From: a virus
UHGV virus genome: UHGV-0090440
Strand: one strand, 5' to 3'
Length of the DNA: 64,000 nucleotides
Shown here piece after piece: positions 10,386 to 50,620 of this stretch (the stretch's first letter is position 1; the number at the start of each line of letters is the position of its first letter). The notes under the pieces are model-generated. The model saw nothing but the letters and a program-made list of their open reading frames with translations, did no database searches and was not told the origin of the DNA. Position numbers and translations under genes: made by a program.

Positions 10386-10477
10386 TGACGTTAACCAGTT
10401 AACAATTAACGCCGGGATGTTTGATTTAACCACTACGGAGGATTGTTTTAACTGTTCCGCGTGCGCTTAGCCGCATT

Positions 10478-10592: not shown

Positions 10593-10593
10593 C

Positions 10594-10680
10594 TGGCGGA
10601 GAGTAATGGAATCGAACCATCATCGCTTGCGCAATGGGACGGTTTTCAAGACCGCTTGAGCACCATGCTCCCTACTCTCC
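10594..10680 (-). tRNA. tRNA-Ser(UGA)-like, atypical; possible pseudogene
   Basis: 87 nt: perfect 7-bp acceptor GGAGAGT/ACTCTCC, T-arm GATGG-TTCGATT-CCATT, anticodon stem-loop GCGGT-CTTGAAA-ACCGT (anticodon TGA), 17-nt variable arm, encoded CCA; but A at position 8 and a short D-loop. Hand-folded only. Confidence 0.4.
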
Positions 10681-10802
10681 AATTGTTGTGGTTACCGGTA
10701 CTGATCTCCGGCTTAGCGACCCCGGCTACTGACTGCATTGCAGTGTGTGAACTCGCCTCGTGTGTCGCTGGGGCATTTCTTTCCGCGCATCAGTCTGCGC
10801 AT

Positions 10803-10882
10803 CAACCACAACGGAAAGAGCATTGGCTAACCAGGCTCGCCGACTCTTCACGATTATCGGCCCAATGCTCTTACCTGTTGTG
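10803..10882 (-). ncRNA. structured element, family member E3
   Basis: Arms CAACCACAACGGAAAGAGCATTGG / CCCAATGCTCTTACCTGTTGTG with a 34-nt insert. Confidence 0.3.
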
Positions 10883-11061
10883 CGCTCCGTTTCGTGGAGC
10901 TAACGGCGGGTGATCGGGCCGCACCAGACTGGACTTATTTCAGCGTTATGCTCATGCCAGAGAATCAAACTGTGATGGTCGGTGCTGAACTCCGACACAG
11001 GGTTGTAGCAAGCCCCGCAAAGCGCGCACTACTGTAGTTGCGGCACATCAGCCTGTGCATT

Positions 11062-11161
11062 CACCACAATGTTGAGAACACTGGTTGTCACGCTGCCTCG
11101 CGACCTTTATTCATAGATTGGGATATGACCCCGTTACGCCAATGTTCTCAACGTTGTAGTG
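11062..11161 (-). ncRNA. structured element, family member E4
   Basis: Arms CACCACAATGTTGAGAACACTGG / CCAATGTTCTCAACGTTGTAGTG; insert contains an AGGCAG-loop hairpin. Confidence 0.3.
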
Positions 11162-11297
11162 CCGGTTACGGTTCCGGCCAGGCTTCTTCCTCAACGGGGT
11201 GTTCTCCATACGGACTACCGTTTATTGGTCGTTCCTGCGGTTTATGTTGTGAAGCCAGATGCTTATCTTCTGGTTGCTTCAAAGAGCTGCACTTCAT

Positions 11298-11384
11298 CAC
11301 AACGGTAAGGGTACTTCGTAGGGATTCGAACCCTCTGCCAAGCTCGGCGATCTCCGACGTCGCAAAATACCCTTACCTGTTGTG
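11298..11384 (-). ncRNA. tRNA-like element E5 (no anticodon arm)
   Basis: 16-bp stem CACAACGGTAAGGGTA/TACCCTTACCTGTTGTG enclosing a D-arm-like hairpin (GCGA-CGTCGGAGA-TCGC) and a T-arm-like hairpin (GAGGG-TTCGAAT-CCCTA); starts 2 nt after the tRNA-Thr 3' end. Confidence 0.35.
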
Positions 11385-11385
11385 T

Positions 11386-11461
11386 TGGTGCCGGTTAACG
11401 GACTCGAACCGCTGACATCCTGCTTACAAGGCAGGCGCTCTACCAACTGAGCTAAACCGGC
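11386..11461 (-). tRNA. tRNA-Thr (anticodon UGU)
   Basis: 76 nt: acceptor GCCGGTT/AACCGGC, D-arm GCTCAGTTGGTAGAGC, anticodon loop CTTGTAA, T-loop TTCGAGT, encoded CCA. Confidence 0.9.
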
Positions 11462-11465
11462 AATT

Positions 11466-11552
11466 TGGTGGGGAGTGATGGAGTCGAACCACCCGAGTCG
11501 CAATGACAGTAGATTTACAGTCTACCCCGCTGCCCCTACGGACTAACTCCCC
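11466..11552 (-). tRNA. tRNA-Tyr (anticodon GUA), type II
   Basis: 87 nt: acceptor GGGGAGT/ACTCCCC, anticodon stem-loop GTAGA-CTGTAAA-TCTAC, long variable arm, T-loop TTCGACT, encoded CCA. Confidence 0.8.
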
Positions 11553-11557
11553 TAAAT

Positions 11558-11632
11558 TGGCGATGGTGGGTGGATTCGAACCACCGACCAGTTGGTTAAC
11601 AGCCAACTGCTCTACCGCTGAGCTACACCATC
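11558..11632 (-). tRNA. tRNA-Asn (anticodon GUU)
   Basis: 75 nt: acceptor GATGGTG/CACCATC, D-arm GCTCAGCGGTAGAGC, anticodon loop CTGTTAA, T-loop TTCGAAT, encoded CCA. Confidence 0.9.
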
Positions 11633-29675: not shown

Positions 29676-30044
29676 TTAGCCTGCATAACCGTTGGCTTTC
29701 ACCCAGCTTATGGTCTGCTCTTTAGCCTGTTCCAACGTAAGGAACTCGCCTACATAGTTTGAGATCCCACGTAGCGCATCAATAAATTCCATTTGTGTGG
29801 ACTTTGTGAACACACCGCCCAGGAAGTCAGTCACTATCTTAGGGACTTCATCTACAACAGGATCAGTCTGTTGTTGCGGTTCCGCTGCCGGTTGCGCGGC
29901 AGTCCCCAGGCCCAATTTCAGCATCACATCAACAATCTGCTTACCAATGGTGACGCGTTGCAATACTGGCGCAGTTTTCTGCGCCTGCATTAGATCTGAT
30001 AGCTCTTTACCTAATTTCAGGCGGTCTAAAACAGAGATGGTCAT
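29676..30044 (-). CDS. hypothetical protein
   Basis: 122-aa ORF overlapping the upstream gene stop by 1 nt. Confidence 0.45.
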   Translation of the reverse strand: MTISVLDRLKLGKELSDLMQAQKTAPVLQRVTIGKQIVDVMLKLGLGTAAQPAAEPQQQTDPVVDEVPKIVTDFLGGVFTKSTQMEFIDALRGISNYVGEFLTLEQAKEQTISWVKANGYAG

Positions 30045-31969
30045 TAAGCACCTCCCTGCTGAATTTCAGCCAGAATGTTGATCAGGTAGTCAACTGCTGC
30101 ACCCACAGTGGCTTCGTTCTCGTCGTATCGACCTGCACTGATTAGAGCATTTGCTGCTTCCTGTACATGATCAAGTTCAGTACTGATGACCGTCAGATCG
30201 CGGGATGTAAACTGCTCCGGCACGGATTTCAGGTACTCCAGCGCTTTATCTGCCTCCTGATCAGCTTCACTTGCTGATTCACCCGCTTCTTCTGGCTCCG
30301 GCTCCTGTTCTGGTGCTGGTTGTGGTTGTGATTCTGGCTCAACCACATGCTCTGTTTTTACTTCGCTTGAATAATTTTGAAGGGCGTTATACACGTCCAT
30401 AATGAAAAGGTTCTCCCCATCACCAAGTGGATACGCCACGTTTGGAAACGCTTTGCGGAAAAGAATTTTCACTTGCGCCTTGAATGTTTTCAGGTCACTG
30501 CCAAACAGGTCCACATAGCCATCAATATGTTTAGACATGCTGGACACAACCAATTGGCCTGCAAAATCTTTCAGCTCATCTTCATCAGGAAGATAGAGCA
30601 ACTCGTACTGGCTGACTTCTTTATCTGTCAGTTTACGGTCATACGTAATGATACCGTGACGAGCATATCCGTAATACTGATCAGCCTGGTCAGGACGATC
30701 AAGCACGGCTTTATTTCCATCCGGCACAGCACCAACACCAGCCGGGCGAGATTGAAGTGCATAGTGGTATTTACCTACATCTTGGCTCTCTGGTTGTGAT
30801 ACTGGGTTCGTCTCGGGGGCTGTCTGTGGTGGTTCGGAGTCTTCCTGCTGGCCTGGTAACACATCAACTTTATATTTATCTGCGTTATGCTCTCGGTAGG
30901 CTTTAAGTAATTTGGTTGCAGCATCTGCCAAACTGCCTCCTTTGACAGCACTGGCATCAATACTGAATTTACCTTCAGGTGCTACTATCGTAACGAAATT
31001 GTCACTGCCGGACGTGACATAATTAACTTCAGCGCCATTATCCAGCACTGTTTTTCCGTCAATGGCAAGATTATGTTTTACATGTCGCAGCTGGTCACTA
31101 AACGCTCGCTCCTTCGTTTTTTCACCTTTAGCAGACAACAATTTATCGCGTTTTTCTTGTAATTCCTCGTTGATGGCTTTCTGGGCATCAAGTTTTTTTT
31201 GCATCTCCGTAAGAGCAGCACGCTTTTCAGTCAGCCCACGTTGCGCAACGTCCACCTGATCAATTGTTATTGACCGTTCTTCTGCCAGTTTATCTGCTTC
31301 ATTGAGATAACTCTCAATATCTGCCTTCATTTTGTCCTGGCGCTCTTTTGCTTTCTTAAATTTTTCGCTGTTACGCTCAATCAAATTAGATAGCGCCTGG
31401 CATACCTGGCTTAAAGAAACATCTCTCCCACCAATCGGGGCGACAACGTGAGTTACGTTACGCTTATTAAGTAAAAACTGAAATGCAACAAGCTCGTCGT
31501 TACTCTTTATTTTTGCCCCGTCAGCTGTTGGAGAGTGGAAAATTATGCTTGTACTCTGCCCGTCAGTAAGCGGTATCTGCGCGGTCAAAACAGGGATATT
31601 AGCTACCCGACGTACACGACCGATAATCGCACCACCAATACAATTACGTCCATTTTCATCGGTCCCGGCTTCATCAGTCCCTGCCATAATATTCGTACCA
31701 TTCAGGCCACGATTCAGCGCACGGACGAAAGCTCGCATTGTTTGAGCTAACCGAATTCTGGTTGTAGTTATGGACTCAAACATAGCTTCGTCAGACACAA
31801 CCAGAATTTCATTGCCCATATAGGCAAGCTCAATATCTTCTAAGGTCGCCGCCTCAAAAATCAGGTCATCTTCGCTTAATTCTTCTGAAGACCAGCGACC
31901 TGGCATATAGCCGGGGATCGTATCAGCAAAAGTAGACTGAATATTAATTCGTAAAGGATTGTTAATCAT
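30044..31969 (-). CDS. large coiled-coil protein in the DarA position (internal head protein candidate)
   Basis: ORF track start 32008; ATG 31969 preferred (GGAGG 6 nt upstream, no overlap with upstream stop), giving 641 aa. P1 DarA is about this size as recalled; assignment is by context and length. Confidence 0.4.
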   Translation of the reverse strand: MINNPLRINIQSTFADTIPGYMPGRWSSEELSEDDLIFEAATLEDIELAYMGNEILVVSDEAMFESITTTRIRLAQTMRAFVRALNRGLNGTNIMAGTDEAGTDENGRNCIGGAIIGRVRRVANIPVLTAQIPLTDGQSTSIIFHSPTADGAKIKSNDELVAFQFLLNKRNVTHVVAPIGGRDVSLSQVCQALSNLIERNSEKFKKAKERQDKMKADIESYLNEADKLAEERSITIDQVDVAQRGLTEKRAALTEMQKKLDAQKAINEELQEKRDKLLSAKGEKTKERAFSDQLRHVKHNLAIDGKTVLDNGAEVNYVTSGSDNFVTIVAPEGKFSIDASAVKGGSLADAATKLLKAYREHNADKYKVDVLPGQQEDSEPPQTAPETNPVSQPESQDVGKYHYALQSRPAGVGAVPDGNKAVLDRPDQADQYYGYARHGIITYDRKLTDKEVSQYELLYLPDEDELKDFAGQLVVSSMSKHIDGYVDLFGSDLKTFKAQVKILFRKAFPNVAYPLGDGENLFIMDVYNALQNYSSEVKTEHVVEPESQPQPAPEQEPEPEEAGESASEADQEADKALEYLKSVPEQFTSRDLTVISTELDHVQEAANALISAGRYDENEATVGAAVDYLINILAEIQQGGA

Positions 31970-32582
31970 GCTCATCCTCCAGGCGCGCGATTTCTTCTTT
32001 AAGAGCACGTGTCTTAGCTACTTCCTGAGACAAGGCAGCTTTAACGTTACCCGTATCTTGCATTACTTTGTCTGACTTGCTCTGGAGTTTAGACAGTTTG
32101 TCGTTAGCATTAGCGATATCTTCACGGAGTGCATCACGTGATTCTTTCGCTTCAGCTAATCTCTGAGCGTTGGATTTAACTCCCTGCCGCTTCTTATTTT
32201 CGTCATCAATATTTTTTGCTGCACGAGCAAGTTTTCGAGCTAATGACTTCTGGAAAGAAGTTGCTCCGCGATTAAATAAAGCCGCAAGAGATTGCCCCAA
32301 AGCCGACATTGTTTTTACTGGCTTGAACGGTACTGTTTTACCATTCAGTTTGATCCCAGATATATCACCGGTATCGTTAACCTGAACTTCCATTGTCTGT
32401 TCATCAAGACCAATAAGGGTAAACGTGCGCGTCATGATCCCATCTTTCTTCCTGCCATTACTTGCAGGGACCACCCTCGCTATCTTGTAACCACCTTTGC
32501 TGATTTCTTTGACGAGTTTTGCCAGCCCCTTTTCGTTTAACTCATCATAATTAAGAAGAACATAATTATTCTTATTTGACAT
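31962..32582 (-). CDS. hypothetical protein
   Basis: ORF track start is GTG 32597; ATG 32582 with AAGGAG 6 nt upstream preferred (206 aa). Confidence 0.5.
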   Translation of the reverse strand: MSNKNNYVLLNYDELNEKGLAKLVKEISKGGYKIARVVPASNGRKKDGIMTRTFTLIGLDEQTMEVQVNDTGDISGIKLNGKTVPFKPVKTMSALGQSLAALFNRGATSFQKSLARKLARAAKNIDDENKKRQGVKSNAQRLAEAKESRDALREDIANANDKLSKLQSKSDKVMQDTGNVKAALSQEVAKTRALKEEIARLEDEHD

Positions 32583-34010: not shown

Positions 34011-34147
34011 ACCTTGGTTTAAGAGAACTCGGTACCAGCGGTGAAAAGATCCCCCTGTTGAGCACGGCTAACACATGGAGTGCGCGCCAGACTTTCAACG
34101 GCGGGATCACCGGGGCGCTGACAGGGAACGCCGACACCGCGACGAAA
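34011..34147 (+). repeat. left 137-bp inverted repeat of the C-segment (contains cix core)
   Basis: Exact reverse complement of 40067-40203 by direct comparison; starts with AAACC-TT-GGTTT (34011-34020), a hix/gix/cix-type crossover core. Confidence 0.85.
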
Positions 34148-36463
34148 CTTGCGACGGCAAGAAACATCAACGGTGTTAAATTTGATGGTTCTGTGGACAT
34201 TTCGATACCAACAATTACGTCCAGAGGGCGTGTTACTGCGCTCACCGGTACAACACAAGGTGCTGCTACTGGATTGCAAATGTATGAGGCGTACAACAAC
34301 GGCTATCCTTCTGCTTACGGGAATGTGCTTCATCTTAAGGGCGCAACGGCAGTTGGTGAAGGTGAGTTGTTCATAGGTTGGAGCGGTACAAGTGGCGCTC
34401 ATGCACCTGTACATGTACGTTCGCGACGAGATACTGATACAGCCAGTTGGTCAGAGTGGGCGCAGGTCTACACATCGAAGGATTCCATCCCTGGTGTAAA
34501 TACCACGGGCAACCAGAACACAACCGGAAACGCGGCGTCTGCAACGAAATTACAAACGGCAAGAACTATTGGTGGTGTTTCATTTAATGGCACCGCAAAC
34601 ATCGACCTGCCGGGCGTGAATAAAACAGGCAATCAGAGCACTACCGGCAATGCAGCTACAGCCACAAAACTGCAAACAGCACGCACCATTAATGGGGTTT
34701 CATTTGACGGAACGGCTAATATTTCTCTGTCACCGGCAAATATTGGTTGCCCGGCATCTCCTACTGGTTGGCTTGAAACAGGTGATAATGGAGCATCAAT
34801 AACAACAGAGCAATTAGTGACTCTGCTACGAGATAATGGTGCTTTTAATGCAAAGGTATGGATAGCGCGTTGTGCCTGGGCGTATGCAAATAGTGCATCC
34901 ATACCAGACAGCGAAACAGGATGCGGCATTATTCCACTGGCTGGCGCAGTTATAGAGGTATTTAATAATAGCAGTAGCACGAGTTATTTTACCATTCGTA
35001 TAACAACGGCAACGACGACAAGTGTATCTGGCGCACTCACTAATGCTGAATTTATCTATGTGTCTAATGGCACAAGTTATTCACCAGGATGGCGCAGAGC
35101 GTATAACACTAAAAACAAACCTACTGCGGCTGATGTCGGAGCTTTACCACTATCTGGAGGAGCGTTAACTGGCGGATTAACTGCTGCTGGCGAGATTATT
35201 TCCAAATCGGCGAATGGTCTGCGCATTGCCTATGGCAACTATGGATTCTTTATCCGTAATGACGGCGGCAGCACATATTTCATGCTAACAGCATCAGGAG
35301 ATACGTTAGGTTCATGGAACAGTTTGCGACCGATTACAATTAATAATACCAGCGGTGTTGTGTCTATTGGTAATGGACTAAATGTTACTGGTGGCGTTAA
35401 TGGTAGTTTGAACGGTAATGCAGCGACAGCGACCAAGTTACAAACCGCTAGAACTATAAATGGGGTGTCGTTTGATGGTTCTAAAAATATTGAGCTAACG
35501 GCGGAAGATTTAAATCTTGAGCAAACTGTAGAATTAGCCGCAGGAGCATTGCAGAAAAACCAGAACGGCGCAGATATTCCGGGAAAAGATACCTTCACTA
35601 AAAATATTGGTGCATGTCGCGCTTTTCACAGTTCTATTAGTACAGGTGCAGGGAACTGGACAACGGCACAATTGATTGAATGGCTGGATTCTCAAGGGGC
35701 ATTCAATCACCCATACTGGATGTGCAAATGTTCATGGTCATACGGCAGTAATAAAATTATTACTGACACCGGATGTGGACTTATTCACCTTGCGGGTTGC
35801 GTTATTGAAGTTATGGGCTATAAAGGCGCCATGACCATTCGTATAACCACACCGAGTACCTCTAACGGTGGTGGCACTACGAATGCGCAATTTATATATA
35901 TTAACCACGGTTCAGAGTATTTACCTGGCTGGCGACGTGACTACAACACGAAAAACCAGCAGCCTGCATTTGCTTTAGGGCAGACAGGAAGCATAGTTGG
36001 AAATGACAAAGCTGTTGGATGGAACTCGATTAGCGGGGTTTATAACGCTAATATTGGTGGATCATCTACGTTGATTCTCCATTTTTATATGGGAGCTGGT
36101 AGTTGTCCGGCTGTTCAGTTCCGCGTGAATTATAAGAACGGCGGTATTTATTATCGTTCTGCGCGTGACGGTTATGGTTTTGAAGCCGACTGGTCGGAAT
36201 TTTATACTACAACACGTAAACCATCTGCGGGAGATGTTGGGGCATATACCAAAGCAGAATGTGATTCACGATTTATTACAGGTATTCGATTAGGTACAAA
36301 ATCGTCTGTGCAAACATGGAATGGTCCTGGATGGAACGATAAATCTGGTTATGTTGTTACTGCCTCAATTAACTCAAATAAGGACGAACTTATTGATACA
36401 ACTCAGGCAAGGCCGCTGCAGTATTGTATCAATGGTACATGGTATAACGCGGGAAGTATTTAA
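34058..36463 (+). CDS. alternative tail-fibre C-terminal cassette (Sv'-like), silent in this orientation
   Basis: 801-aa frame beginning with TTG inside the inverted repeat; first 30 aa identical to residues about 420-450 of the 1286-aa fibre; contains [15 protein letters not shown](N/G)GVSFDG repeats. Confidence 0.7.
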
Positions 36464-37558: not shown

Positions 37559-40500
37559 TTAAACCTGTGCCACGTTATACCATGTTCCATTAATCTGTTT
37601 CTGAACCGGCCTGTAATATACACCTCCAATATTATCGGCAGAATTCGAGCCGGTATCCTGGACTATAATGCCAGTATAAACGCAGCCTGATGGTGCCTGA
37701 TGCGTCCATGTCGAGGTGTTATTTGCTGGTTTATATGTAGATGCTCCACCAAGTCGCATGTCTCTTACATAACGAGAATCAAAGTTACCGTAATCCGAGG
37801 GGTTAACACGCCCTGTAATATTTATGGTTTTATTACTTTGAATGCTGCCGGAGACAAAGCGCATAACATGAACGTTATTAGCATAAACGTCCAGATTACC
37901 GTCGCCATTTTGTTTAAAGCCCGTGTCATTATCACCCAAAACAATCGAGTTACCGCCAAGAGCACTGGATGTTCCGATGCCCAGTGCACCATTCAATTGA
38001 CCGCCAGATAATGACAACGCCCCAACCTCAGCAGCAGTCGGTTTAATGTGCGAACTGTAAATTACATATACAGTTCCATCTGTCAGGCCTGTTGGTTTAT
38101 TCGCTGTATAAGTTGGTGATGTATGAATCGTTACGCTGGCGTTACTGGTATAATCCCACTGAATATTAACACCTGTGGCGTAATTACCTATTTCAACATA
38201 AACATCATAGGTATCACCGGATGTATTCACCCATGCAAAATTAGTAAATCCAACCGAGGTCCGTCGCCATAATGCACCAGTAATACCTTTTGGATTTCCA
38301 TTTCCTGCACGCAGAACCAGCTCAGAGATGCCTGCTTGCTGCGGGGAGCCAACGTTAAACCCTGCACCACCAATCAGGCTTATGTAAACCACGGAACTGG
38401 CCTGTGGCATGGTTACAGTTGCCAGTTTGAACCATCCAGCACCACCACTAAAAGACATTGTTGTGGAGTTGATCGTGCCTATAGACCGTGGGTTAAGTTC
38501 AATATCTTTAGAACCATCAAACGAGACGCCGTTGATAGTACATGCTGTCTGCAACTTGGTCGCTGTCGCTGCATTACCGGTAGTGTTCTGATTACCTGTT
38601 TTATTCACACCTGGCAGGTCGATATTGGCACTACCATCGAATGACACTCCGCCTATTGTGCGTGCTGTTTGCAGTTTTGTTGCAGTTGCAGCATTACCGT
38701 TCAAACTACCATTGATGCCGCCAGTAACATCCAGACCATGCCCCATGCTTATCCGACCAGTTCTAAGATTAAGCGTAAAGGGACGTAGTGGCCCTATATC
38801 ACCATTTTCCCCCTCATTCTCTCGTGTAGGGATGATATGCAGGCATTCTTCAGAACGACGAAAAATAGCACCAAAAGATGAATTAAATATCCTTAGTGCA
38901 TTGACTGTCGATATTTTTACTTCACTGCTGAAAAGGGCTTTAACAAGGACAGACAAAGCATCCCATTTAAGATTCATCAGGTCTTTTGTTGTGGTGCTCT
39001 GGCGACTTCTCCATTTGAAATATTCATTGCCGTTGTCGCCTGTTTCAAACCACATGTATGAATCAGTATCGCTGTCGGCATCATTTTTAAAACCAATCTT
39101 CGCCCAGTCAGTATTCCGAATCCAGGCAAGGATTGAGTCGTTTTCAAAAGTAAGTCCACCGGACAAGGTATCGCCTGTCTTTTGAACCGCGTTATCAGCC
39201 TTGTTTACCGTTTCCTGTAGATTTAAATCTTCCGCCGTTAGCTCAATATTTTTAGAACCATCAAACGACACCCCATTTATAGTTCTAGCGGTTTGTAACT
39301 TGGTCGCTGTCGCTGCATTACCGGTTGTGTTCTGATTACCTGTTTTATTCACACCTGGCAGGTCGATATTGGCACTACCATCGAATGACACTCCGCCTAT
39401 TGTGCGTGCTGTTTGCAGTTTTGTTGCAGTTGCAGCATTTCCTGAAAGGCTTGAAACAAACTGATGTGAGCAGTAATAACCACGTCCATTTTTAAAATCC
39501 AGAATGGTTTGAGTATTTGTACTTTCTGCTACTGGATCTGTGGCCCCCCACTTATAGGTGGCTTGACCAACGGTATAGTCAGTAGTAGGAACAATTACGT
39601 TCAAGCCCTCCTCAGCAAATATCTTGATAGGAAATGCTCTGGCTTCAACGTAAAATACACTACACAAATCGTCATCTTTCACACTTGAAATAATCGAGTG
39701 TATAGCTCGCTCAGTAGTAGAATATATTGAGAAAAAACCAGCTGCATATGAACCGCGATCAGACCAACCGCCAGGCATAACAAAACCATTAAATTCACAA
39801 TTATTCATGGCGTATCCGCCAGCTGAGGAATAAGTAGTTATCACAACTCGTGAGGCTAATTCATCGGTACTGCCTCCAGATCGGCGAAAGACTATAGGAT
39901 ACCACTTACCGCTTACTGCATTTGCAGGCGCTGAAAAAGTGTATTTTCTCATCCCTTTTTTATTGTCTATTTCGCTTTTGCTGTAAACGTCCAGATCTTT
40001 AGGAGTCAACGTAATGTCAGCCGAACCATCGAACCTGACGCCATTAATGTTTATGGCTGTTTTCAATTTCGTCGCGGTGTCGGCGTTCCCTGTCAGCGCC
40101 CCGGTGATCCCGCCGTTGAAAGTCTGGCGCGCACTCCATGTGTTAGCCGTGCTCAACAGGGGGATCTTTTCACCGCTGGTACCGAGTTCTCTTAAACCAA
40201 GGTATTGGATAACGGCCAGTGTGCTTGTTTTAGCCAGAATATCTCGACCGACTGACGTTAAATCAGTCTGCGCTACCGTATCCTTACCAGTGAAATAAGG
40301 CAGTTTGTTTGCGCCTGTCGCAAGACCAGCAAGCGCGGTTAAAGTTGCATCAAGTGGCTGTTTCCCTGCCAGCGCATTTGTCATTGTTGTCGCAAAGTTC
40401 GGGTCATTGCCCAGTGCTGCTGCAAGCTCATTCAGGGTATCAAGAGCTTCAGGTGATGAGCCGACCAATGCAGAGATAGCAGCCCGTACGTAAGCAGTCG

Positions 40501-41419
40501 TAGCGATCTGCGTATTGTTTGTGCCCTGTGCAGCCGTAGGCGCAGTAGGGACACCCGTTAATGCAGGGCTTGCCAAAGGCGCTTTGAGAGCCAAGGCATT
40601 GTTGATAGTTGTGCTGTAATTCGGGTCGTTATTGATCGCAGCCGCTATTTCTTTCAGCGTATCCAGTGTGCCAGGCGCACCGTTGATAAGTGCAGTTATA
40701 GCTGCCTTAACAAAGGCTGTATTTGCGATCTGCGTGCTGTTTGTGCCTTGTGAGGCCGTAGGCACTGTCGGCGTACCTGACAGATGCGGACTATTGAGCG
40801 GAGCTTTTGTATCAACCAAATCATGAAGAGTTTTGACAGCCAGAGGTGTAGCCGCTTTTCTTTCTTCTGTACTGCTTATTTCATTAGAGAATTCGACACC
40901 AACAGCACGGTTAACTCGGTATTTAAGCACAATCATTTCTTTAGTCACAGCCGTTGCGCCGCCAGGCACGATAACTCGACATAATTCAATTTGATTCTGC
41001 CCAATAGCATTGTCCGTACGCGCGAAAATTCTTGCAGCACTGACAGAAGATGCGCTATCTACCTGTGTCGTTTTTACACCATGTTCAAAATTGGCTTCCA
41101 GCACAATAATGTTGGTAGCCCCAGCCTTTACCGAGACAGTCACATCTTCTATTTGCTGAACGGATATCTGAACATTATTTACATCTACTGAAGCAGCCCC
41201 TTTACCTTCTGAGTTTTCAGAAGTTATACGGACGCTCAACCCTGTGCCGGGAACTGGTTCAAATCCACAGTAAAAGCCCGGCAAAACAATATTTTTAAGT
41301 TTTCTGTTAAGAGCAGAACTACTATAGAGTTCGAAATATTGAACATCAGCAAGCAACGGCTGTGAGACACCAGAGGATAGTGTCATTATGTTGTTCGTTT
41401 TATCAGCACCCATAATCAA
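37559..41419 (-). CDS. tail fibre (constant N-terminal part fused to current variable C-terminal part)
   Basis: 1286 aa; the invertible-segment junction falls at about residue 407-450; repeated [41 protein letters not shown] blocks. Confidence 0.8.
38553..38695. repeat. direct repeat copy A inside the tail-fibre gene
   Basis: About 143 bp, near-identical (one mismatch seen by eye) to 39297-39439. Confidence 0.7.
39297..39439. repeat. direct repeat copy B inside the tail-fibre gene
   Basis: Partner of 38553-38695, 744 bp away and in frame. Confidence 0.7.
40067..40203 (-). repeat. right 137-bp inverted repeat of the C-segment (contains cix core)
   Basis: Reverse complement of 34011-34147; lies inside the tail-fibre gene at the constant/variable junction. 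Confidence 0.85.
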
Positions 41420-42812: not shown

Positions 42813-44243
42813 TTACGGGTAAGAAATGCTGAACGTTGAAGATTTTACGTTAAGATAAATGAAGTCATTAAAGTAAACAGCATCTTTCATATTTTGTATT
42901 GTTATGTCGTAAGACAGAAACATATCCAGAGACTCTATTACTCGCCAAATATCTTTAACTTTTACCTGTGCATAACATTGTTGGGAATCATCATCACTCT
43001 GTAGTAATAAGCTGAATGATGACGAATCACGGCCAAAATTATCTTCCAACGCTGCTTTAATAGCATTTTGAGCATCGTCTATCAGAACATTTTTACGTAC
43101 AATACCTATAAAATTTATAGTAAATGGCTGTTCATTTGTATCTACATACTCGAACCGCTTGTTCAATTCATTTGGCACATTCTCCAGGGCTTTCAGTATT
43201 TCTGATTTTAGCTGAGCCTGGCTTACACCCGGCTTATGTCCGCAAAAGAAAATTTTGTTGATGTTTCGAACGTCAAACCCAGTTATTTTCTCTTGTAACG
43301 CTTCGCCCCAAACGTTCAACCATGAAGTTCCATGAACAACATTCTGAATGAATTGGCGATAATCACCGCCCCATACCACTTGTTCATCGTATGCAACATA
43401 ATACTGAGCACGATTTCGAGTTTCTTCTGTAGTTTCCATACCACTACCACCGGTAATGATCGAATCAGTTTTAAACTCTAGTGACTCCACATATTGAGCG
43501 ATATTTCCAGCCGGTTCTAACTTTTGTCCTTCAGCCAAAGTATAGTCGCCAAGGCTAGCCATAACATCGATTCGAACCTGACAGCCTGCTGGAGGCATCA
43601 TACCCATAGAACCATCACCAAACTTGACTCCAAGTTGTTCTGTAGGTTTATATGCCAATGAATAGTGCTTACTCTTGTCTCTGGACATTCTAAATAATGG
43701 GTTATATGTCCATTTTTCTTCTACTCCATCTGTAATAACATAAACATCCAGGCTAGAGACTTCTTTTGTTAACTCTCTGGAAAGCAACAATGTCAGAAAT
43801 AAAGTTTCCTTCTCAATATCAAATGTAATGCTAACAGCTTCATGCTGTTTAGTTTCTACGCCAGAAACAGTTCCTCCAGCAGGAATTACAACACTGTTAA
43901 TAATTGCCAAAGGTGTTTGGTCATTGGCAAGCAATTCAGCCCCGGCTGGTAACGTAATATCCCGATCAGTTTTATTGGTTATAGACGTTGTTCCGTATGA
44001 AGCACTAACAAATCGCCCTACGTAGCCACGGTCTTCAGCAACCGCTAAAATACTTGAGCGACGCGTTGCCGTTGAAATAAGTCCCTCAGTGAGGCCGCGG
44101 CTTGCAAATGTACGGGCAATATAAATAAGCTGCGATCCGAATATAGCGTGCATCTGCACAAACTGACTATTTACAAATCGTGACCACCATGTGTTTTCAT
44201 TTAACTTGGCGTTAAATTTGTCCAGTAATTCTGTAATCGTCAC
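42813..44243 (-). CDS. baseplate J-like protein
   Basis: 476 aa; N-terminal region (ILAVAEDRGYVGRFVSASYGTTSIT) fits the Baseplate_J family pattern; overlaps the upstream gene (ATGA-type coupling). Confidence 0.55.
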   Translation of the reverse strand: MTITELLDKFNAKLNENTWWSRFVNSQFVQMHAIFGSQLIYIARTFASRGLTEGLISTATRRSSILAVAEDRGYVGRFVSASYGTTSITNKTDRDITLPAGAELLANDQTPLAIINSVVIPAGGTVSGVETKQHEAVSITFDIEKETLFLTLLLSRELTKEVSSLDVYVITDGVEEKWTYNPLFRMSRDKSKHYSLAYKPTEQLGVKFGDGSMGMMPPAGCQVRIDVMASLGDYTLAEGQKLEPAGNIAQYVESLEFKTDSIITGGSGMETTEETRNRAQYYVAYDEQVVWGGDYRQFIQNVVHGTSWLNVWGEALQEKITGFDVRNINKIFFCGHKPGVSQAQLKSEILKALENVPNELNKRFEYVDTNEQPFTINFIGIVRKNVLIDDAQNAIKAALEDNFGRDSSSFSLLLQSDDDSQQCYAQVKVKDIWRVIESLDMFLSYDITIQNMKDAVYFNDFIYLNVKSSTFSISYP

Positions 44244-44614
44244 GCGCCCACCCCACTTGATTTCTGCATAACAATATCCATGCTCCCACCTTTCGCATAA
44301 AAACTAATTAATAAAGAATCTTCAGAAATTGATGTGCAACGAATCCCCTGCACATCCAAACCTGGCAAGTCTTGTCGTAGTTTTTTCATCATTCTCCCTT
44401 CAATAGCCACTTCAACTATGTGCGAAGTTTCAGAGCCGAATGGTTCATGCTTAAATTCTTCCATTGGACTCCCCCAAGAGGGTAAACCATAAACACTCCC
44501 TTCAGGGGTTCGTAGCCACTCGTCAAGTCGGGCCATCCATGCTGCGGTACTTCCTTCTGCAATAATGACACCGCTCTCATTCGTTTGAAGTCTTGCGTCT
44601 ATTTCGTAAAGCAT
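44240..44614 (-). CDS. baseplate wedge protein (gp25/GPW-like) candidate
   Basis: 124 aa, directly downstream of the tape-measure candidate and upstream of the J-like gene. Confidence 0.4.
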   Translation of the reverse strand: MLYEIDARLQTNESGVIIAEGSTAAWMARLDEWLRTPEGSVYGLPSWGSPMEEFKHEPFGSETSHIVEVAIEGRMMKKLRQDLPGLDVQGIRCTSISEDSLLISFYAKGGSMDIVMQKSSGVGA

Positions 44615-44619
44615 CAGTA

Positions 44620-47600
44620 TTAATCCTCAAGCAGAGCATCCAGCGACTGGTCATTAATAGTTGTGCTCGCACGTGGTCGCGGCTGCGGCTGCGATGTTTT
44701 GACAACATTATCCGGATCGCCTTTTGTATTGTTCTTGTTCACATTCAGCAGATCGTTCAGGATAGAGCAGATGTTATCCAGCGCCTTCAACATAGCAGGA
44801 TCGTTATTTATAGTGTCAGTAGTTAATGGTTGTCTTATTCCGCTTCGTGCGAGATCGGTTACAGTAGGGAGTTGTGGCGGCATAGCAAGAAAAGGTTCTT
44901 GCACAGCTGAAGCAGAGCCAAATATGGCGTTATTGGCACCAGTTGCTATTCCCCTAATGCTATTAGCGGTTTGTTGAATCCCCCCATTCAGCCAGTCTCC
45001 AACATTTCTTGTTAATGGGCTAATAGCTCGCGCAATCGCACTATTCTGCCCAGTAGACTGCATTACAAGATCGTTCAATATCCCTGTACTATCAATCCCC
45101 CCAACAAGTCGTGAAAGGTTATCGCCAACGGCAGGAATTACTGCGGTTCCTGTCTGTTTAAGCCCTGACACCGTGGAATCAAATAGCGAACCAAAGAAGC
45201 TCTTATCCTCACCTGTAACCACCTTGTAGCCGTTGTCATAAATCTGCACATCACTTGGTGCCGTGATAGTTCGTTTTCCAGAGGTAACTACTGGCGCAGC
45301 TCCCGCCATAGCCTGGTTGATTGCTAGAGCCTGCTCCTGCTGTGGGGTTTTCGGTGCTGGCGCTGCAGATGAAAAGCCCTCCATAGCCTGGCTGATTGCT
45401 AGAGCCTGCTCCTGCTGTGGGGTTTTCGGTGCTGGCGCTGCAGATGAAAAGCCCGCCATAGCCTGGCTGATTGCTAGAGCCTGCTCCTGCTGTGGAGTTT
45501 TCGGAGTAGAAGGGGATACTTGATCTCCCGGAAGTAGATCAATGATTTCTGTATCGTGATTAACAGTGCGTTTTTGTTGTATGGCTGTTGCGATATCAGC
45601 CACTTGAGAAGCTTTTTTAAATCCAAAAGATTTACCGGTTAAGCCGGATATCTTTTCAGTAAGAGCCTGATCCATCCCTTTCGCTTTTTCGGAAAGCGAA
45701 GATATAGAACCAAACGAAGTAGCCAACGCAAAATCCTTTACCAGGTCCAGACTTGTTCCAGCAAGGCTGGTAGCCGCGCCGCCAAATAAATTACTTGCAC
45801 CACTGATTCCGCTTTCATTTATTGTGATTAACCGCTCAAGCAAACTCGATGGAGAGCCGGTATTAACATCAGCGTTCTCTGGATTAATCGGTTGTGGTTG
45901 GTTACCTGTTTTTTGTGGCTTTTTGACTGCCTGGGCATGTTGTGCAACCTCAATTGGCTGTTGTGTTGCTGTCGGAACGGCATTCAAAACTGGTTGAGCT
46001 GGAGATTTTCCATTAGCATATTTTACCTTGCGACCAACACTATATTGCGAATCGCGGGCAATTAGCTGACCACCATTTTCTTTCTGAATTTTATTAATCC
46101 GCGCCAATGTTTCGTCAGAGAATTGTCCCTCCCATCGACCAGTGTTTGTGTTAAATGCTCCAAGTGCGTTCTTAATGAACTCATTATTAACTGCCGGATT
46201 TCCGCCTTCTTTCGTCGCAATTGCACGAACTAATTGCGTCATAACCTCTGGTTTGCTGACATCTATTTTTTCATTAGGCGATACACCAAGATATTTACTG
46301 ACGTTATCAATATATTGGTTAGTATTGTTCTCATTTGGCGGTGCCCATTTTGAAATGATGCTGGATACCGTCTGTAACTTCTGATATCCCGCTGCGGCAC
46401 TGGTGCCGTTGTAATAGCTGGAAACCTGGTTTGCCAGTGCCCTGATCCCTTCTTCAGGTGTGTTAAATCGCGCAAAACGTTGTTCACCTTTTGCATTTGG
46501 CGATTCCAGCGTCGCCCCTTCCTGGTTGGCAAAAACAAGATTGCCGAGATTATTATTTCGGTAATTGCGGTTTTTAGAGTTGCTGCCGCCAATATTCAGA
46601 TCCGCTGCAATGGTGTTGTTGGCAGGTGAACTAAATTCAGTTGGAGAAGTATACCCGTGCTCACCAACTCCATCCTCGCCATTACGCCCACCTTGTAATT
46701 GTTCACCTAGAGAATGAATCGCATCGACAGTTTTTTTGGTGCCGTCTTCAACAGCTTTTTTTACTTGTTTCGTGTTTTCGTCAGTGGATAAAAATGTATC
46801 CTTAAGGCTACCAAAAACAGATTTGGTGATATCTACCGCGCCGTTAACACCACGAGCAATATCTCCGGTATCAAAATTCTGAAGTTTTTCACCTGCTCTT
46901 TCAAATCCTAGCGCAGAAATTCCTTTCCCTATCAAGTTCGTTGCGCCCGACACCAAGCCCCCCATATCGAGCACATTAGCTGTTGCGTAAGCCGTTTTTT
47001 GCTGTTCGGCTACAGCATCATCGTCACTTAATCCAAAGGCTGCCTTTTGCGCATCTGTATCAGTGTAACCATCTATAGCGTCATATCCCGCCATAGCCAG
47101 CGAACCGATGATAGGGATAGCTCTTGCAGCTGTAGAAGCAGCTGATTTAACACCTATTTTTGCAGCACTTTTGAGGGCTACGGATTCGGTTTTTTTCTTT
47201 GCAACAGTTTCACCTGTTTTAACTGTGGCCTCTTCGGCAACAACACCTGCTGGCTTAACTGCCTTTGCTGTGTTTTTTGTTTCTTTAGCAATACCCTTAG
47301 ATGCGTCGCTTGTGGTGCTGATGTCTTTGGCTTTACTAACCTTTGTTTTAACAGTCTTTGCAGCTCCGGCACCAGCTCCAGCAGCAGCGGTTCCGGCAGC
47401 GGCTTTTTCACCAACAGAAAGGGCTTTTTTCCCCAGATTGCGACCTTTCCTTTTCGGTTTGTTCCGTTTATTTTTACCAGCCTGATCGCCAATATTGATT
47501 TTATTTCTTCTGCTTGCTCGATTTCTCCAGAGATCACTTAAGCCGAACTTATTCCCAGAAGATACTGATTTGCGTAGCTTAACTACTTCGTCGGAGACAT

Positions 47601-48600
47601 TTTCCAGACCATCAATTATTTTGTTGTCATTGGTCTGAAGAATTTTTGTTTGCTCTTCTACTGCTTGTGCTGATTTTGTCTCAACAGCATTATTAAATGC
47701 TGTTGCAGAGGTTGCTTTTTGAGTATTAACCACCGCCGGATAAGTGATAGCTGGAGATGTCTCTTTCGAAGGTGAAGCCTCACCTTTCCCCTTTTCTACC
47801 CATTCTTTAAGAGATTCTGCTTTACCTGTGATCTCTTTAGTAATGTCGTACATGCCGCGAGCAGCCATCCACAACGGACCACCAGCGCCAACACCTGCGG
47901 CATCTGTTAAAGACTCTTCACTGGAAGACTGATTGCCATCTACCCCTATAATGGAGCCTAATTTCCGGAGGAAGCCTTCTTGTAGTTTGGCGTCGGCCTT
48001 ATGTGCTTTCTGCCATTCTTTTTTTCTGGCTATATCTTCGTTGTTTTTCTGGGATACAAAGCGTCCGTTACTATCCCGAAGCGGTCCTTTTTGGCTTTGG
48101 GGGGATTGTGGTTCAAGAGGAGCAGAATTAGCGGCTACTGGCACAGAACCTTTCAACTTTTGGGCTGACTGGCGTGATGACGCAAAATGAACGCGCTCTG
48201 ATGTGTTGGTTGCAACAATGAGACGTTCTTCTCCGTTGTTGATCAGCGTCCTCCCTTTTTTCATCGGAAGGCGTTTTATATATGGGTTAGCTTGGGTGTT
48301 CTTGGCATCATCAGAGACATAGGGTTCGCTTGCTATGAGTCTACGGGATAGTCTTTGACTTACTTTACCTTGATTTTCACCAAGTTGAGTTATAGACCCT
48401 CTACCAGAGAGAATGGCGTCTTTGATCTCAGCAAGAGCGTTAAGTTCGTTTGTGCTCGCCCCCTGAATAGCGTCAATTATTGCGATACGGTCTTTATTCT
48501 CTTTCAAAATAACCTCTCTTTTGCCAGCGGCGATCAACGTTTCCCGGCTTGAGCTTTGTATTTTTCTTCCAGGGCTTTTGACATATGGAGTGCTCGCCAT
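44620..48600 (-). CDS. tail tape-measure / injection protein candidate
   Basis: 1326 aa, long low-complexity regions, internal 25-aa tandem repeats, position upstream of baseplate genes. Confidence 0.55.
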   Translation of the reverse strand: MASTPYVKSPGRKIQSSSRETLIAAGKREVILKENKDRIAIIDAIQGASTNELNALAEIKDAILSGRGSITQLGENQGKVSQRLSRRLIASEPYVSDDAKNTQANPYIKRLPMKKGRTLINNGEERLIVATNTSERVHFASSRQSAQKLKGSVPVAANSAPLEPQSPQSQKGPLRDSNGRFVSQKNNEDIARKKEWQKAHKADAKLQEGFLRKLGSIIGVDGNQSSSEESLTDAAGVGAGGPLWMAARGMYDITKEITGKAESLKEWVEKGKGEASPSKETSPAITYPAVVNTQKATSATAFNNAVETKSAQAVEEQTKILQTNDNKIIDGLENVSDEVVKLRKSVSSGNKFGLSDLWRNRASRRNKINIGDQAGKNKRNKPKRKGRNLGKKALSVGEKAAAGTAAAGAGAGAAKTVKTKVSKAKDISTTSDASKGIAKETKNTAKAVKPAGVVAEEATVKTGETVAKKKTESVALKSAAKIGVKSAASTAARAIPIIGSLAMAGYDAIDGYTDTDAQKAAFGLSDDDAVAEQQKTAYATANVLDMGGLVSGATNLIGKGISALGFERAGEKLQNFDTGDIARGVNGAVDITKSVFGSLKDTFLSTDENTKQVKKAVEDGTKKTVDAIHSLGEQLQGGRNGEDGVGEHGYTSPTEFSSPANNTIAADLNIGGSNSKNRNYRNNNLGNLVFANQEGATLESPNAKGEQRFARFNTPEEGIRALANQVSSYYNGTSAAAGYQKLQTVSSIISKWAPPNENNTNQYIDNVSKYLGVSPNEKIDVSKPEVMTQLVRAIATKEGGNPAVNNEFIKNALGAFNTNTGRWEGQFSDETLARINKIQKENGGQLIARDSQYSVGRKVKYANGKSPAQPVLNAVPTATQQPIEVAQHAQAVKKPQKTGNQPQPINPENADVNTGSPSSLLERLITINESGISGASNLFGGAATSLAGTSLDLVKDFALATSFGSISSLSEKAKGMDQALTEKISGLTGKSFGFKKASQVADIATAIQQKRTVNHDTEIIDLLPGDQVSPSTPKTPQQEQALAISQAMAGFSSAAPAPKTPQQEQALAISQAMEGFSSAAPAPKTPQQEQALAINQAMAGAAPVVTSGKRTITAPSDVQIYDNGYKVVTGEDKSFFGSLFDSTVSGLKQTGTAVIPAVGDNLSRLVGGIDSTGILNDLVMQSTGQNSAIARAISPLTRNVGDWLNGGIQQTANSIRGIATGANNAIFGSASAVQEPFLAMPPQLPTVTDLARSGIRQPLTTDTINNDPAMLKALDNICSILNDLLNVNKNNTKGDPDNVVKTSQPQPRPRASTTINDQSLDALLED
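45305..45504. repeat. 75-bp in-frame tandem repeat, about 2.7 copies
   Basis: Units at 45305-45379, 45381-45455 and partial 45456-45504, differing by 1-3 nt; encode the repeated APAPKTPQQEQALAISQAM(A/E)GFSSA block. Confidence 0.8.
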
Positions 48601-48654
48601 TGTGGCAATTGTTCAACGTCACTAACGGGCTGATATCCATACAGAGTCAGGTTG

Positions 48655-49476
48655 TTAATAATGGTTAGCCATCCATTCAGATCTAATTGATGGGATAAAC
48701 TCTCTATTGAGAAAGGGGACGTACAGTGTGGTTGTCACATCTGCACCCTCCTTAGCGTTTTTGCAATGTTGCGGAGGCAGGATCAGTCGGCTTGAGCCTC
48801 TCTCAATAGACATTTTCAGGCCGTGGCGTAGGTCTTTTTGCATAAGCTGTATGCGAGCCACAAGCGGGGTAAATTCGGTTTCAAGCGCCATGCTTTCAAT
48901 GATGTCAAAGCGTCGGTTAGCGGCCTGCGTGAAGTCCTCCGGATCGTCTTCAAGCGCCGTGCATAAAGCGAGTTCAGCAATTCGCATCCGTGCTACGCCA
49001 GCACTGTATTCGGGAGTTTTCATATCAGGAAGTGACGCTCGCATTCGTTCAAGGAGTTCCGCGCCTTTCCCGGTTAATGGTTTAAGTATCCAGTCAGTTG
49101 GTACTCCATTTACTGGTACGTTGGTTTTCACGTAAGGAGGTACAGTGAGTATTTCTACTGTTTGGGCCAGGTCGCTCAGGTTAATATCTGCATGATGCGT
49201 ATTACCGCAGTGACTGCACTCATAGGAGTAGGTCATTACTGCATCGGGGCGCGAATTAACAAATATCCACCAAAGAGCAGTTCTGCGGTCCTGAACTGTC
49301 CAGTTAGCACTGTCGTTAATTTCACCATCCTGCATAGAGTTAAGGTACTCTGTAGTCGTTGCCTCATCTTCTGCCGGGTTCAGGTCAGAATATTTCAGCG
49401 CATCCTTCACGGTAGGGGCGTGGAACTGAATTTCTGTCTCAGGACGGGAAGGCAATGGGAATTTTGGAATGTTCAA
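48655..49476 (-). CDS. hypothetical protein (first gene of tape-measure/baseplate operon)
   Basis: 273-aa ORF divergent from the repA region. Confidence 0.5.
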   Translation of the reverse strand: MNIPKFPLPSRPETEIQFHAPTVKDALKYSDLNPAEDEATTTEYLNSMQDGEINDSANWTVQDRRTALWWIFVNSRPDAVMTYSYECSHCGNTHHADINLSDLAQTVEILTVPPYVKTNVPVNGVPTDWILKPLTGKGAELLERMRASLPDMKTPEYSAGVARMRIAELALCTALEDDPEDFTQAANRRFDIIESMALETEFTPLVARIQLMQKDLRHGLKMSIERGSSRLILPPQHCKNAKEGADVTTTLYVPFLNREFIPSIRSEWMANHY

Positions 49477-49581: not shown

Positions 49582-49860
49582 TGAGGGTGATTTTTACACC
49601 TTAAGTGACGCTACTCACATATCCACAGAGTATTTTTATAAACCTTTTTCCATTTTTAATCCTTTTTAGATCCTTTTTAGGCGTCGCTGGAGCCAGTAGT
49701 GGCGCGGGCTGTAGAGGAGGCTGGTGTAAGATTTGCCCTCAATTAAATACGATCGGTGTAAGATTTGCCCTCAGAAGGTGTAAGATTTGCCCTCAAAAGG
49801 TGTAGTAATTGCCCTCAAAGTGGTGTAAAAATTGCCCTCACCATTTGAAGGATCACACAG
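49582..49860. promoter_or_regulatory. plasmid replication origin region (oriR-like)
   Basis: Inverted iteron (49582-49600), DnaA-box-like ATATCCACA (49619-49627), AT-rich tract with GATC sites (49555, 49669, 49751, 49850), then five direct 19-bp iterons overlapping the repA promoter. Confidence 0.6.
49723..49840 (+). repeat. five direct 19-bp iterons GGTGTAAGATTTGCCCTCA (incC-like)
   Basis: Copies at 49723, 49755, 49777, 49799 and 49822, with 1-3 substitutions each. Confidence 0.8.
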
Positions 49861-49864
49861 GGTT

Positions 49865-50620
49865 ATGAACAGAGCGGAATTAACAGCAAAAGCCGTCAGC
49901 CTGATTGAGTCAGCGACACCTATTAGTCGTAGTCTGGCACAAGCCAATGAGATCACGGAGGCTGCTTATCACCTGACTCGCGACCAAAAGCGACTGTTGT
50001 TTATTGTGGTGGGAAGACTTCGCTATGCTTCTAAGGATGGCGTTCTTGGTTCAGGTGCCTGTGAGTTGACGGTCAACGAATATGCAGAGATGTATAATTT
50101 GCCCTCTGCTGAAGCCAGCAAGGATATTCGTAAGGCCATTTCAGGGCTTAGCGAGAAGAAAGTTACGATATATAACCCTGATGAATCGACCGAATCAGAA
50201 GACAGTTATGAGTCTTATCCCTGGATGATTAAGGATGCCTATTCACCACGGCGCGGGACTTACATTATTCATCTTAATCCATATCTCATGCCGTTTTTTA
50301 CTCTGCTTGATAAGAGATTCACAAGGCTGAATTTTACCGAAGTATCTCGCCTTACAAATCCTTATTCTATGCGGCTTTATGAGTCCTTATGCCAGTACAG
50401 GAAGGATGATGGAAGCGGCTTTGCCATACTTGGCGTCGAATGGATGCGGGAGCGTTATGGGTTACCAAAAAGCTATCAGCGGTATGCCGAATTTAAGAGA
50501 AGTTTTTTAACGAAGGCTGTAGCAGAGATTGAAAAAAATACAAAAATGAAAATAGTCTTCTCAGAGGTGACGGAAGGCGGCAAAGTTACCAGGATAAAAT
50601 TTACCTATCAGCAGTCTTAA
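49865..50620 (+). CDS. repA: iteron-binding replication initiator (RepA-like)
   Basis: ORF track start is TTG 49832 inside the last iteron; ATG 49865 preferred (252 aa); flanked on both sides by iterons, as in P1/F-type replicons. Confidence 0.7.
   Translation: MNRAELTAKAVSLIESATPISRSLAQANEITEAAYHLTRDQKRLLFIVVGRLRYASKDGVLGSGACELTVNEYAEMYNLPSAEASKDIRKAISGLSEKKVTIYNPDESTESEDSYESYPWMIKDAYSPRRGTYIIHLNPYLMPFFTLLDKRFTRLNFTEVSRLTNPYSMRLYESLCQYRKDDGSGFAILGVEWMRERYGLPKSYQRYAEFKRSFLTKAVAEIEKNTKMKIVFSEVTEGGKVTRIKFTYQQS

Follow-up and report, generated by a model that had tools for sequence, protein, structure and literature searches.

The 64,000-nucleotide sequence of the virus genome UHGV-0090440 (the whole stretch analysed, referred to below as the window) contains a 75-bp in-frame tandem repeat within a homologue of the sit gene of phages P1 and D6, and this array is a coding minisatellite, i.e., a variable-number tandem repeat that is polymorphic among close relatives. 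Sit is a large virion protein presumed to act as the tape measure of the P1 tail. The array occupies the C-terminal third of the protein, and we lean, by a small measure, towards the interpretation that gain and loss of its units alters the effective length of this presumed ruler.

Identification of the Repeat Array

The repeat is visible by direct inspection of the raw sequence. Tandem Repeats Finder reported it as the strongest tandem array of the window (45302-45504, period 75, 2.7 copies, 96% matches, 0 indels, score 385), the runner-up reaching a score of only 114. This call falls within 3 nt of the interval 45305-45504, for which the first-pass annotation had proposed an in-frame 75-bp tandem repeat of about 2.7 copies encoding 25 amino acids (aa) per unit, and it bears that proposal out. 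In codon register the array spans 45280-45504 on the minus strand and is composed of three 25-codon units, which correspond to Sit aa 1033-1107. Unit 1 (45430-45504, minus strand, aa 1033-1057) reads PKTPQQEQALAISQAMAGFSSAAPA, unit 2 (45355-45429, minus strand, aa 1058-1082) reads PKTPQQEQALAISQAMEGFSSAAPA, and unit 3 (45280-45354, minus strand, aa 1083-1107) reads PKTPQQEQALAINQAMAG followed by AAPVVTS. The first two units are identical except at 2 of 75 nt, while unit 3 matches over its first 53 nt with 1-2 differences and diverges after that, retaining an 18-aa core ahead of its AAPVVTS end. Because two 75-nt copies differ at just 2 positions, the array is real and not a product of chance, and the 75-bp in-frame repeat of the window is genuine. 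The unit is absent from the rest of the window when both strands are searched, and the G+C content of the array is 59% versus 46% for the whole gene. It is possible that the count of three units in the window results from collapse during assembly; 3-unit alleles are also present in several independently assembled complete plasmids.

Copy Number among Related Plasmids

A query made of the two 1-kb flanks only was compared with all complete Escherichia coli genomes, and the best 60 matches included 57 repeat-bearing plasmids with flanks at least 95% identical. The number of units in these plasmids ranged from 1 to 17, with a mode of 5-6 and a broad unimodal distribution. Arrays of 1, 2 and 3 units were found in 3, 3 and 2 plasmids, respectively, those of 4, 5, 6 and 7 units in 7, 11, 9 and 5 plasmids, and those of 8, 9, 10 and 11 units in 6, 4, 3 and 1 plasmids; one plasmid carried 14 units and two carried 17. 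Examples are NZ_CP066033 of FDAARGOS_1059 with 1 unit, NZ_CP020051 of AR_0118 in the modal class of 5-6 and NZ_CP116989 of MLI108K1 with 17. Three of the 57 arrays consisted of whole units plus 9 nt, an excess for which a 3-aa (FSS) version of the final unit, known from other alleles, probably accounts. Tandem Repeats Finder run on four loci gave 16.7, 13.7, 10.7 and 8.7 copies. Length differences between the annotated sit genes of near-identical plasmids are multiples of 75 nt, and protein alignment revealed 1, 2, 3, 5, 6 and 7 units between otherwise near-identical flanks. The open reading frame (ORF) was open in every allele examined (1, 2, 3, 5, 6, 7, 9, 11, 14 and 17 units), including the 17-unit allele of 1676 aa, and Sit ranges from 1276 to 1676 aa over 1-17 units. 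The first-pass annotation had predicted changes of protein length in 25-aa steps and had suggested a comparison of repeat number among relatives; the 1-17 copies found in near-identical plasmids agree with the prediction, and the number is variable rather than invariant.

At the protein level, the repeat segment was present with 1-7 units in the best 120 protein clusters (90% identity), in Sit lineages 73-99% identical to the window protein. The source names of the repeat-bearing clusters include Salmonella, Shigella, Klebsiella and E. fergusonii. Many BLAST matches started exactly at query position 683, at the edge of the repeat, and were considered as a sign of a mosaic breakpoint. This was rejected, as hardly any difference separates the variants over the C-terminal 227 aa and it is the extra repeat copies that split the alignments at the repeat edge. 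A separate 28-aa tandem duplication (KETSFLESSVEGLKSIGSAILPT...) was seen in the Sit homologue of Enterobacter hormaechei (P0126, aa 1100-1151), inside the conserved C-terminal region, and represents a further natural length change in a Sit protein.

The changes in copy number can be followed between almost identical plasmids. Ec-050, an NDM-5 strain of sequence type 167 (ST167), was taken through 20 rounds of propagation on selective agar and accumulated 0-9 single-nucleotide variants (PMC11039899); from this statement and the strain names we infer that the labels T0, T5 and T20 are passage numbers. The D6-like plasmids of T0, T5 and T20 have lengths of 90446, 90296 and 89996 bp, with gaps of exactly 2 and 4 units. 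When the arrays are written with one letter per distinct unit variant (some of these strings were read from translations and not computed by script), the T0 allele is DEFGEFHEFHC (11 units), the T5-MAC allele is DEFFGEFHC (9 units), and the alleles of T5-ESBL, T20-MAC and T20-ESBL are all DEFHC (5 units). A single in-register deletion converts the T0 allele into the 5-unit allele, and two events are needed for the 9-unit allele. Plasmids of WCHEC035125 (9 units) and WCHEC035148 (4 units) are likewise separated by a single 5-unit in-register deletion between identical units. Presumably, replication slippage or unequal homologous recombination between copies that are 96-100% identical adds and removes units. 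The occurrence of one identical 5-unit allele in two Ec-050 passage lines suggests that the T0 culture was already mixed.

Arrays of this kind are prone to collapse, and assembly could in principle contribute to the differences in length. They measure 0.2-1.25 kb, which is longer than short reads. The largest protein clusters hold 2-4 units (for example, 4 in the 877-member P0003 and 2 in the 428-member P0016) versus the peak of 5-6 in complete plasmids, the Logan collection of assembled sequencing runs is the only source of P0016, and the passage lines of Ec-050 arrive at a common allele. Against an origin in assembly, all records of the copy-number series are complete circular plasmids from many laboratories, and the arrays differ in the order of variants, not just in their number, with pairs linked by clean in-register deletions. 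Separately assembled replicate or related isolates agree in unit order and in counts (MLI108K1/K2; SX4/SX48; AR_0118/0119/0128), which argues against random misassembly.

The Repeat Unit as a Constrained Peptide

Each unit consists of a conserved 17-aa segment, PKTPQQEQALAISQAMA, and a variable linker of 8-9 aa rich in Pro, Ala and Ser. The linker occurs in versions such as GFSSAAPA, DSSPAAPA and DSAPTAIPA and varies freely in length and sequence. Comparison of the 17-codon core, PKTPQQE(Q/N)ALAISQAMA, between the 75-bp variant and a 78-bp variant revealed 8 synonymous versus 1-2 non-synonymous codon differences in the Sit frame. The same comparison in the other five frames gave 0-1 synonymous differences in four of them and 6 versus 4 in one opposite-strand frame. 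The mainly synonymous differences in the Sit frame indicate that the core is selected as protein and that the array is not a DNA-level element; on this codon evidence, the 17-aa core is under purifying selection. A DNA-level element and an opposite-strand ORF (45263-45523, plus strand) had been considered as the source of the repeat and were rejected, with the synonymous excess (8 vs. 2) residing mainly in the Sit frame and stop codons present in three of the five alternative frames of the array.

AlphaFold2 was run on two parts of Sit, the N-terminal aa 1-660 and the C-terminal 454 aa (aa 873-1326). Both parts were modelled as long helices and coil with no globular fold, but with a predicted local distance difference test score (pLDDT) of only ~43. 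In each of the last two units, a helix of ~12 residues was placed with low confidence on QQEQALAISQAM, with the linkers as coil.

Occurrence of the Cassette in Other Sit Backbones

The repeat cassette is not confined to D6-type Sit proteins. The Escherichia albertii plasmid pESA138_1 (NZ_CP070291; locus 3536-3811) encodes a P1-type Sit with 3.7 copies of the 75-bp unit, inserted between ERARGKGTA and TAGNVY, and its protein has 1239 aa versus 1140 aa in P1. E. coli FDAARGOS_497 (NZ_CP033848; locus 617-855) encodes a P1-type Sit with 3.1 copies of a 78-bp, 26-aa unit. In both cases, the site of insertion is non-homologous to the D6-type context. A query composed of flank, array and flank matched 523 plasmids, of which only pESA138_1 and FDAARGOS_497 were covered over at least 80%, and the next 38 plasmids listed for this query showed the uninterrupted P1 arrangement. 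The PLSDB gene table has no sit gene in either of the two P1-type cassette plasmids, though the ORF of the E. albertii plasmid is intact (1239 aa).

A more distant version of the cassette is encoded by the 102-kb plasmid of Nissabacter sp. SGAir0207 (QCR38732 / WP_137765820). This Sit protein came from an exhaustive profile search that took the last 454 aa of Sit as query and returned 21 representatives only, the match being C-terminal in every full-length one. It contains about six 25-aa units, ATPLQEQIQAVYDAEHGKASAPAAP, at aa 775-925, in the equivalent position, and they share ~45% identity with the E. coli arrays (E 1e-11 to 1e-17). The Nissabacter units also show a 50-aa super-period. The protein appears to be a mosaic, with a D6-type muralytic domain and a P1-type C-terminus.

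The Sit protein of phage D6 itself has zero units and in protein alignment carries a different short segment in the position of the array, and no tandem repeat or cassette-like sequence was found when P1 Sit was searched. To judge from its occurrence in D6-type Sit, at a non-homologous site in P1-type Sit and, in diverged form, in Nissabacter Sit, the cassette is portable. E. coli TUM1586 harbours a P1-type and a D6-type plasmid-prophage in one strain (NZ_CP135714 and NZ_CP135715), which shows that a single cell can contain both types and gives an opportunity for exchange of the cassette.

The sit Gene and Its Surroundings

The sit-like ORF (44620-48600, minus strand, stop codon included) encodes a D6-type homologue of P1 Sit with 1326 aa. 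It matches PHROG 7182, 'tail injection transglycosylase', over the full length of the profile (E=0, aa 32-1326 onto positions 1-1228 of 1228). The gene of phage D6 annotated as 'similar to P1 gene sit' shares 88% DNA identity and 81% protein identity with it. Alignment to P1 Sit (1140 aa) is limited to the ~600 N-terminal residues, which share 25% identity (E 3e-34). By the full-length PHROG 7182 match together with synteny, the ORF is established as a Sit of the P1/D6 family. At the 5' end of the gene (window 48600-48655), some close relatives are annotated 13 codons longer and their gene alignment to the window is 1 nt shorter; the ATG at 48600 is the start used by other relatives.

A muralytic domain lies at about aa 672-816 (46153-46587, minus strand) and resembles a Pae87-like endolysin or the muralytic part of podovirus internal virion proteins, with matches to PDB 7Q47 'Endolysin' (E 7.8e-16), to 9vvp_L Gp29 (E 3.4e-13) and to PHROG 873. 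P1 Sit has an SLT-type lytic transglycosylase domain, and no Pfam SLT match was found in the window Sit. The term 'transglycosylase' in the name of the window protein is, by this comparison, carried over from earlier annotation, the domain being different from the P1 SLT domain. Searches of the window Sit against Pfam (E<0.1) and NCBIfam gave zero matches, tape-measure profiles included, and the match to PHROG 2276, 'tail length tape measure protein', is confined to aa 638-841, across the muralytic domain. Directly downstream of the array, the conserved C-terminal region (aa 1101-1326; 44623-45300, minus strand) is nearly identical across all copy-number variants and D6 in protein alignment.

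The neighbouring genes, all on the minus strand, form a tail module. A pmgB-like gene (48655-49476; PHROG 1854 and D6 annotation) lies directly upstream of sit, and PmgB has been proposed as a tape-measure chaperone in P1 (PMC9024508). Downstream of sit follow a pmgA-like (gp25-like) gene (44240-44614) and a bplA-like (gp6-like) baseplate wedge gene (42813-44243), a pair recognised by PHROG 1896 / 1369 and by the D6 annotation. The order of the module is pmgB-sit-pmgA-bplA-16-R-S, with S as tail fibre, and the tube and sheath genes are found further upstream of the pmgB-like gene. The sit gene is thus placed between tube/chaperone genes and baseplate genes, as looked for in a tape measure. Outside the module, the window has genes for DarB-like (2305 aa) and DarA-like proteins, a portal and five tRNAs, and a RepB-type replication gene accompanied by iterons. 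This content, together with the tail module, identifies the window as a D6-like plasmid-prophage, and its nearest relatives are ~90-kb non-mobilizable E. coli plasmids of 97-99% identity.

Several further features of the window were recorded. The DarB-like methyltransferase/helicase of 2305 aa and the DarA-like protein, of the kind released on infection, are encoded on the minus strand at 16056-22973 and 30044-32008, respectively. A 22-bp unit repeated 3.9 times (49755-49840), iteron-like, lies just ahead of the RepB-type initiator ORF (49832-50620, plus strand) and overlaps its start, and the replication module is placed between pmgB and the tube gene, the same as in phage D6. The tRNA genes (Met, Ser, Thr, Tyr and Asn) lie at 9056-11632 on the minus strand, with Thr, Tyr and Asn in a tight cluster at 11386-11632. 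Two tail-fibre ORFs, 34058-36463 (plus strand) and 37559-41419 (minus strand), have opposite orientation and PHROG families in common, an arrangement compatible with a Cin-type invertible host-range segment like the one annotated in D6.

Sit as a Presumed Tape Measure

Sit was detected in P1 virions by mass spectrometry, and Gonzales et al. argued for Sit rather than gp6 as the tape measure of P1 on the grounds of its size, its helical N-terminal two-thirds and the position of its gene (PMC9024508). Cryo-electron microscopy (cryo-EM) work on P1 lists Sit as the tape measure, yet the protein is not seen in the resolved structure; the tape measure is reported to be ejected upon contraction (PMC12810830). 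The P1 tail has 53 rings with a rise of 40 Å, a sheath of 2100 Å and a lumen of 40 Å (PMC10304247), and 1140 aa against a sheath of ~2100 Å correspond to ~1.9 Å per residue, the canonical figure being 1.5. The role of Sit as tape measure is presumed, having been assigned for P1 from size, helicity, position and virion mass spectrometry. The earlier designation of the host gene as a tape-measure candidate holds in so far as the gene is a homologue of Sit, which the P1 literature treats as the tape measure; the ruler role itself keeps the status of a presumption.

The mechanism we propose is as follows. Sit, in the P1/D6-like myophage plasmid-prophages, would fill the tail tube as tape measure and be ejected at infection. 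The array would be housed in the lumen of the tube, with the muralytic/hydrophobic part on one side and the C-terminal region on the other, the latter being assumed to anchor the protein to the baseplate hub. Gain or loss of units by slippage or unequal recombination would then change the length of the ruler, each unit adding about one tube ring, as 25 aa × 1.5 Å gives 37.5 Å for a helix versus the 40 Å ring rise of P1. A change from 1 to 17 units would amount to ~16 rings, or ~60 nm on a sheath of ~210 nm, and populations would carry heritable tail-length variants. Taken alone, the tail-length step, in which the putative ruler is lengthened with each added unit, seems to us evenly poised.

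A number of observations weigh against this mechanism. Some concern the ruler itself: its role is itself deduced, Sit is missing from the resolved part of the P1 cryo-EM structure, and Pfam and NCBIfam provide no tape-measure match. In the suggestion of Gonzales et al. (PMC9024508), the length of the tail is matched by the ~750 helical residues at the N-terminus of P1 Sit, and in that case the C-terminal repeat segment would fall outside the ruler; the array is located downstream of the muralytic domain. Others concern the unit. It has four prolines, and only a short helix and coil are predicted for it, with a pLDDT of ~40, which makes the conversion at 1.5 Å per residue uncertain. The idea that 25 aa equal exactly one ring was examined as well and is weakened by the 26-aa unit variant and the proline-rich linker. 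D6 and P1 function without the cassette, and the implied 33% range of tail length among near-identical phages would be unusual. According to a 2026 survey, myovirus tape measures are typically without tandem repeats. Finally, the convergence of the Ec-050 lines is more easily reconciled with a mixed start or an assembly effect than with new events happening repeatedly.

Alternative Explanations

The alternative that survives best, and to which we grant a tentative place, is that the array is a tolerated flexible helix-linker spacer between the muralytic/hydrophobic part and the C-terminal region, with the N-terminal helices setting tail length and the copy number drifting in a near-neutral manner. 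The matching of the ~750 N-terminal helical residues of P1 Sit to the tail by Gonzales et al. (PMC9024508) would suit such an arrangement, as would the Pro/Ala/Ser-rich linker, free in length and sequence, and the AlphaFold2 model, which is mostly coil at low confidence. The broad, unimodal distribution over 1-17 units and the complete lack of the cassette in D6 and P1 point in the same direction. On the other side stand the purifying selection on the 17-aa core (8 synonymous vs. 1-2 non-synonymous differences) and the retention of this core in three very different Sit backbones, which goes beyond the expectation for a pure spacer. Experience with other phages also counts against a mere spacer: to our knowledge, in every tape measure tested experimentally (lambda gpH, T4 gp29, TP901-1 and TM4), internal in-frame deletions or duplications altered tail length. 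In the TM4 tape measure, tail length is reportedly altered also by changes in the region of the muralytic motif.

It is improbable, in our estimation, that the array acts after ejection, as an extensible arm that lets the muralytic and membrane-active parts span the periplasm, with copy number tuning reach or efficiency to the envelope of each host; such a function would be compatible with the other readings. The muralytic domain of Sit, the ejection of the P1 tape measure upon contraction (PMC12810830) and the selection on the core peptide would agree with it, and the modal 5-6 units would measure ~20-30 nm if extended, although this figure is arithmetic only. The normal infection by cassette-free D6 and P1 speaks against it. 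An origin of the copy-number differences, and possibly of the count of three in the window, purely as assembly artefacts of a collapse-prone repeat is unlikely as the cause of the population pattern, and with the agreement among separately assembled isolates and the clean in-register deletions described above we assign it only a very slight chance.

Relation to Known Systems

The closest known counterpart of the window protein is P1 Sit (YP_006507). The two share the position in the pmgB-sit-pmgA-bplA order, the character of a large virion protein, homologous N-terminal ~600 aa and an internal muralytic domain. They differ in that P1 Sit has 1140 aa and no tandem repeat, its C-terminal half is essentially unalignable to the window Sit, and the domain of the window protein is Pae87-like. 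In-frame internal length changes in a protein believed to be the ruler are also familiar from lambda gpH, T4 gp29, TP901-1 Tmp and TM4 Tmp. In those phages, the changes came from engineering or selection, and their consequence for the tail was measured, whereas in Sit they are natural, frequent, modular and known from sequence alone.

In-frame minisatellites occur in bacterial surface and secreted proteins, where near-identical units of a multiple of 3 nt are gained and lost in register, giving length polymorphism with the frame kept. The Sit array differs from these in being part of a phage virion protein, and no antigenic or adhesive role is implied.

Muralytic motifs are carried by the TM4 and T5 tape measures (PMC9024508, PMC13585406), and tandem repeats were named as contributors to tape-measure length in the 2026 survey. 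Siphophage tape measures vary by duplication and loss of 11-aa units (Belcaid et al. 2011, PMC3271669). The Sit unit, in contrast, has 25-26 aa in the form of a helix and a Pro/Ala linker and does not follow the 11-residue pattern. Moreover, the host of the Sit array is a contractile-tailed plasmid-prophage, the cassette is found in unrelated backbones, and Sit varies not only between species, as in the siphophages, but also among ~99% identical genomes and, apparently, in laboratory passage. Repeat-unit variation in tape measures is therefore already known, and what is new here is this Sit array in P1/D6-like myophages. Our literature search yielded no prior description of this repeat in the sit genes of P1/D6-like phages, with the D6 genome paper (Gilcrease & Casjens 2018), where a mention is possible, lying outside that search.

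Significance of the Sit Repeat

For practical purposes, the locus offers a marker of variable length in the D6-like plasmid-prophages, a group frequent among E. coli of clinical and livestock origin. The number of its units is likely to be underestimated by short-read assemblies, and automated annotation produces many differently sized 'transglycosylase' proteins from it.

Tests of the rule that the length of the tape measure sets the length of the tail have relied mostly on engineered mutants from a small number of phages, and in P1-like phages the identity of the ruler is itself deduced. The plasmids described here represent a ready natural allelic series, in which Sit extends from 1276 to 1676 aa in 25-aa steps within near-identical genomes of culturable strains. 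Such a series could test both the role of Sit as the ruler of P1/D6-like phages and whether the segment beyond the muralytic domain counts toward length.

Our preferred reading, a minisatellite that alters the effective length of the presumed ruler, has a more far-reaching form, which we consider rather unlikely: a portable tail-length cassette, a helix-linker module quick to expand and contract, that has spread among unrelated Sit backbones of D6, P1 and Nissabacter type and would serve as a contingency locus for virion geometry, in steps of about one ring. If this were true, lysogen populations of P1/D6-like plasmid-prophages would hold heritable variation in tail length.

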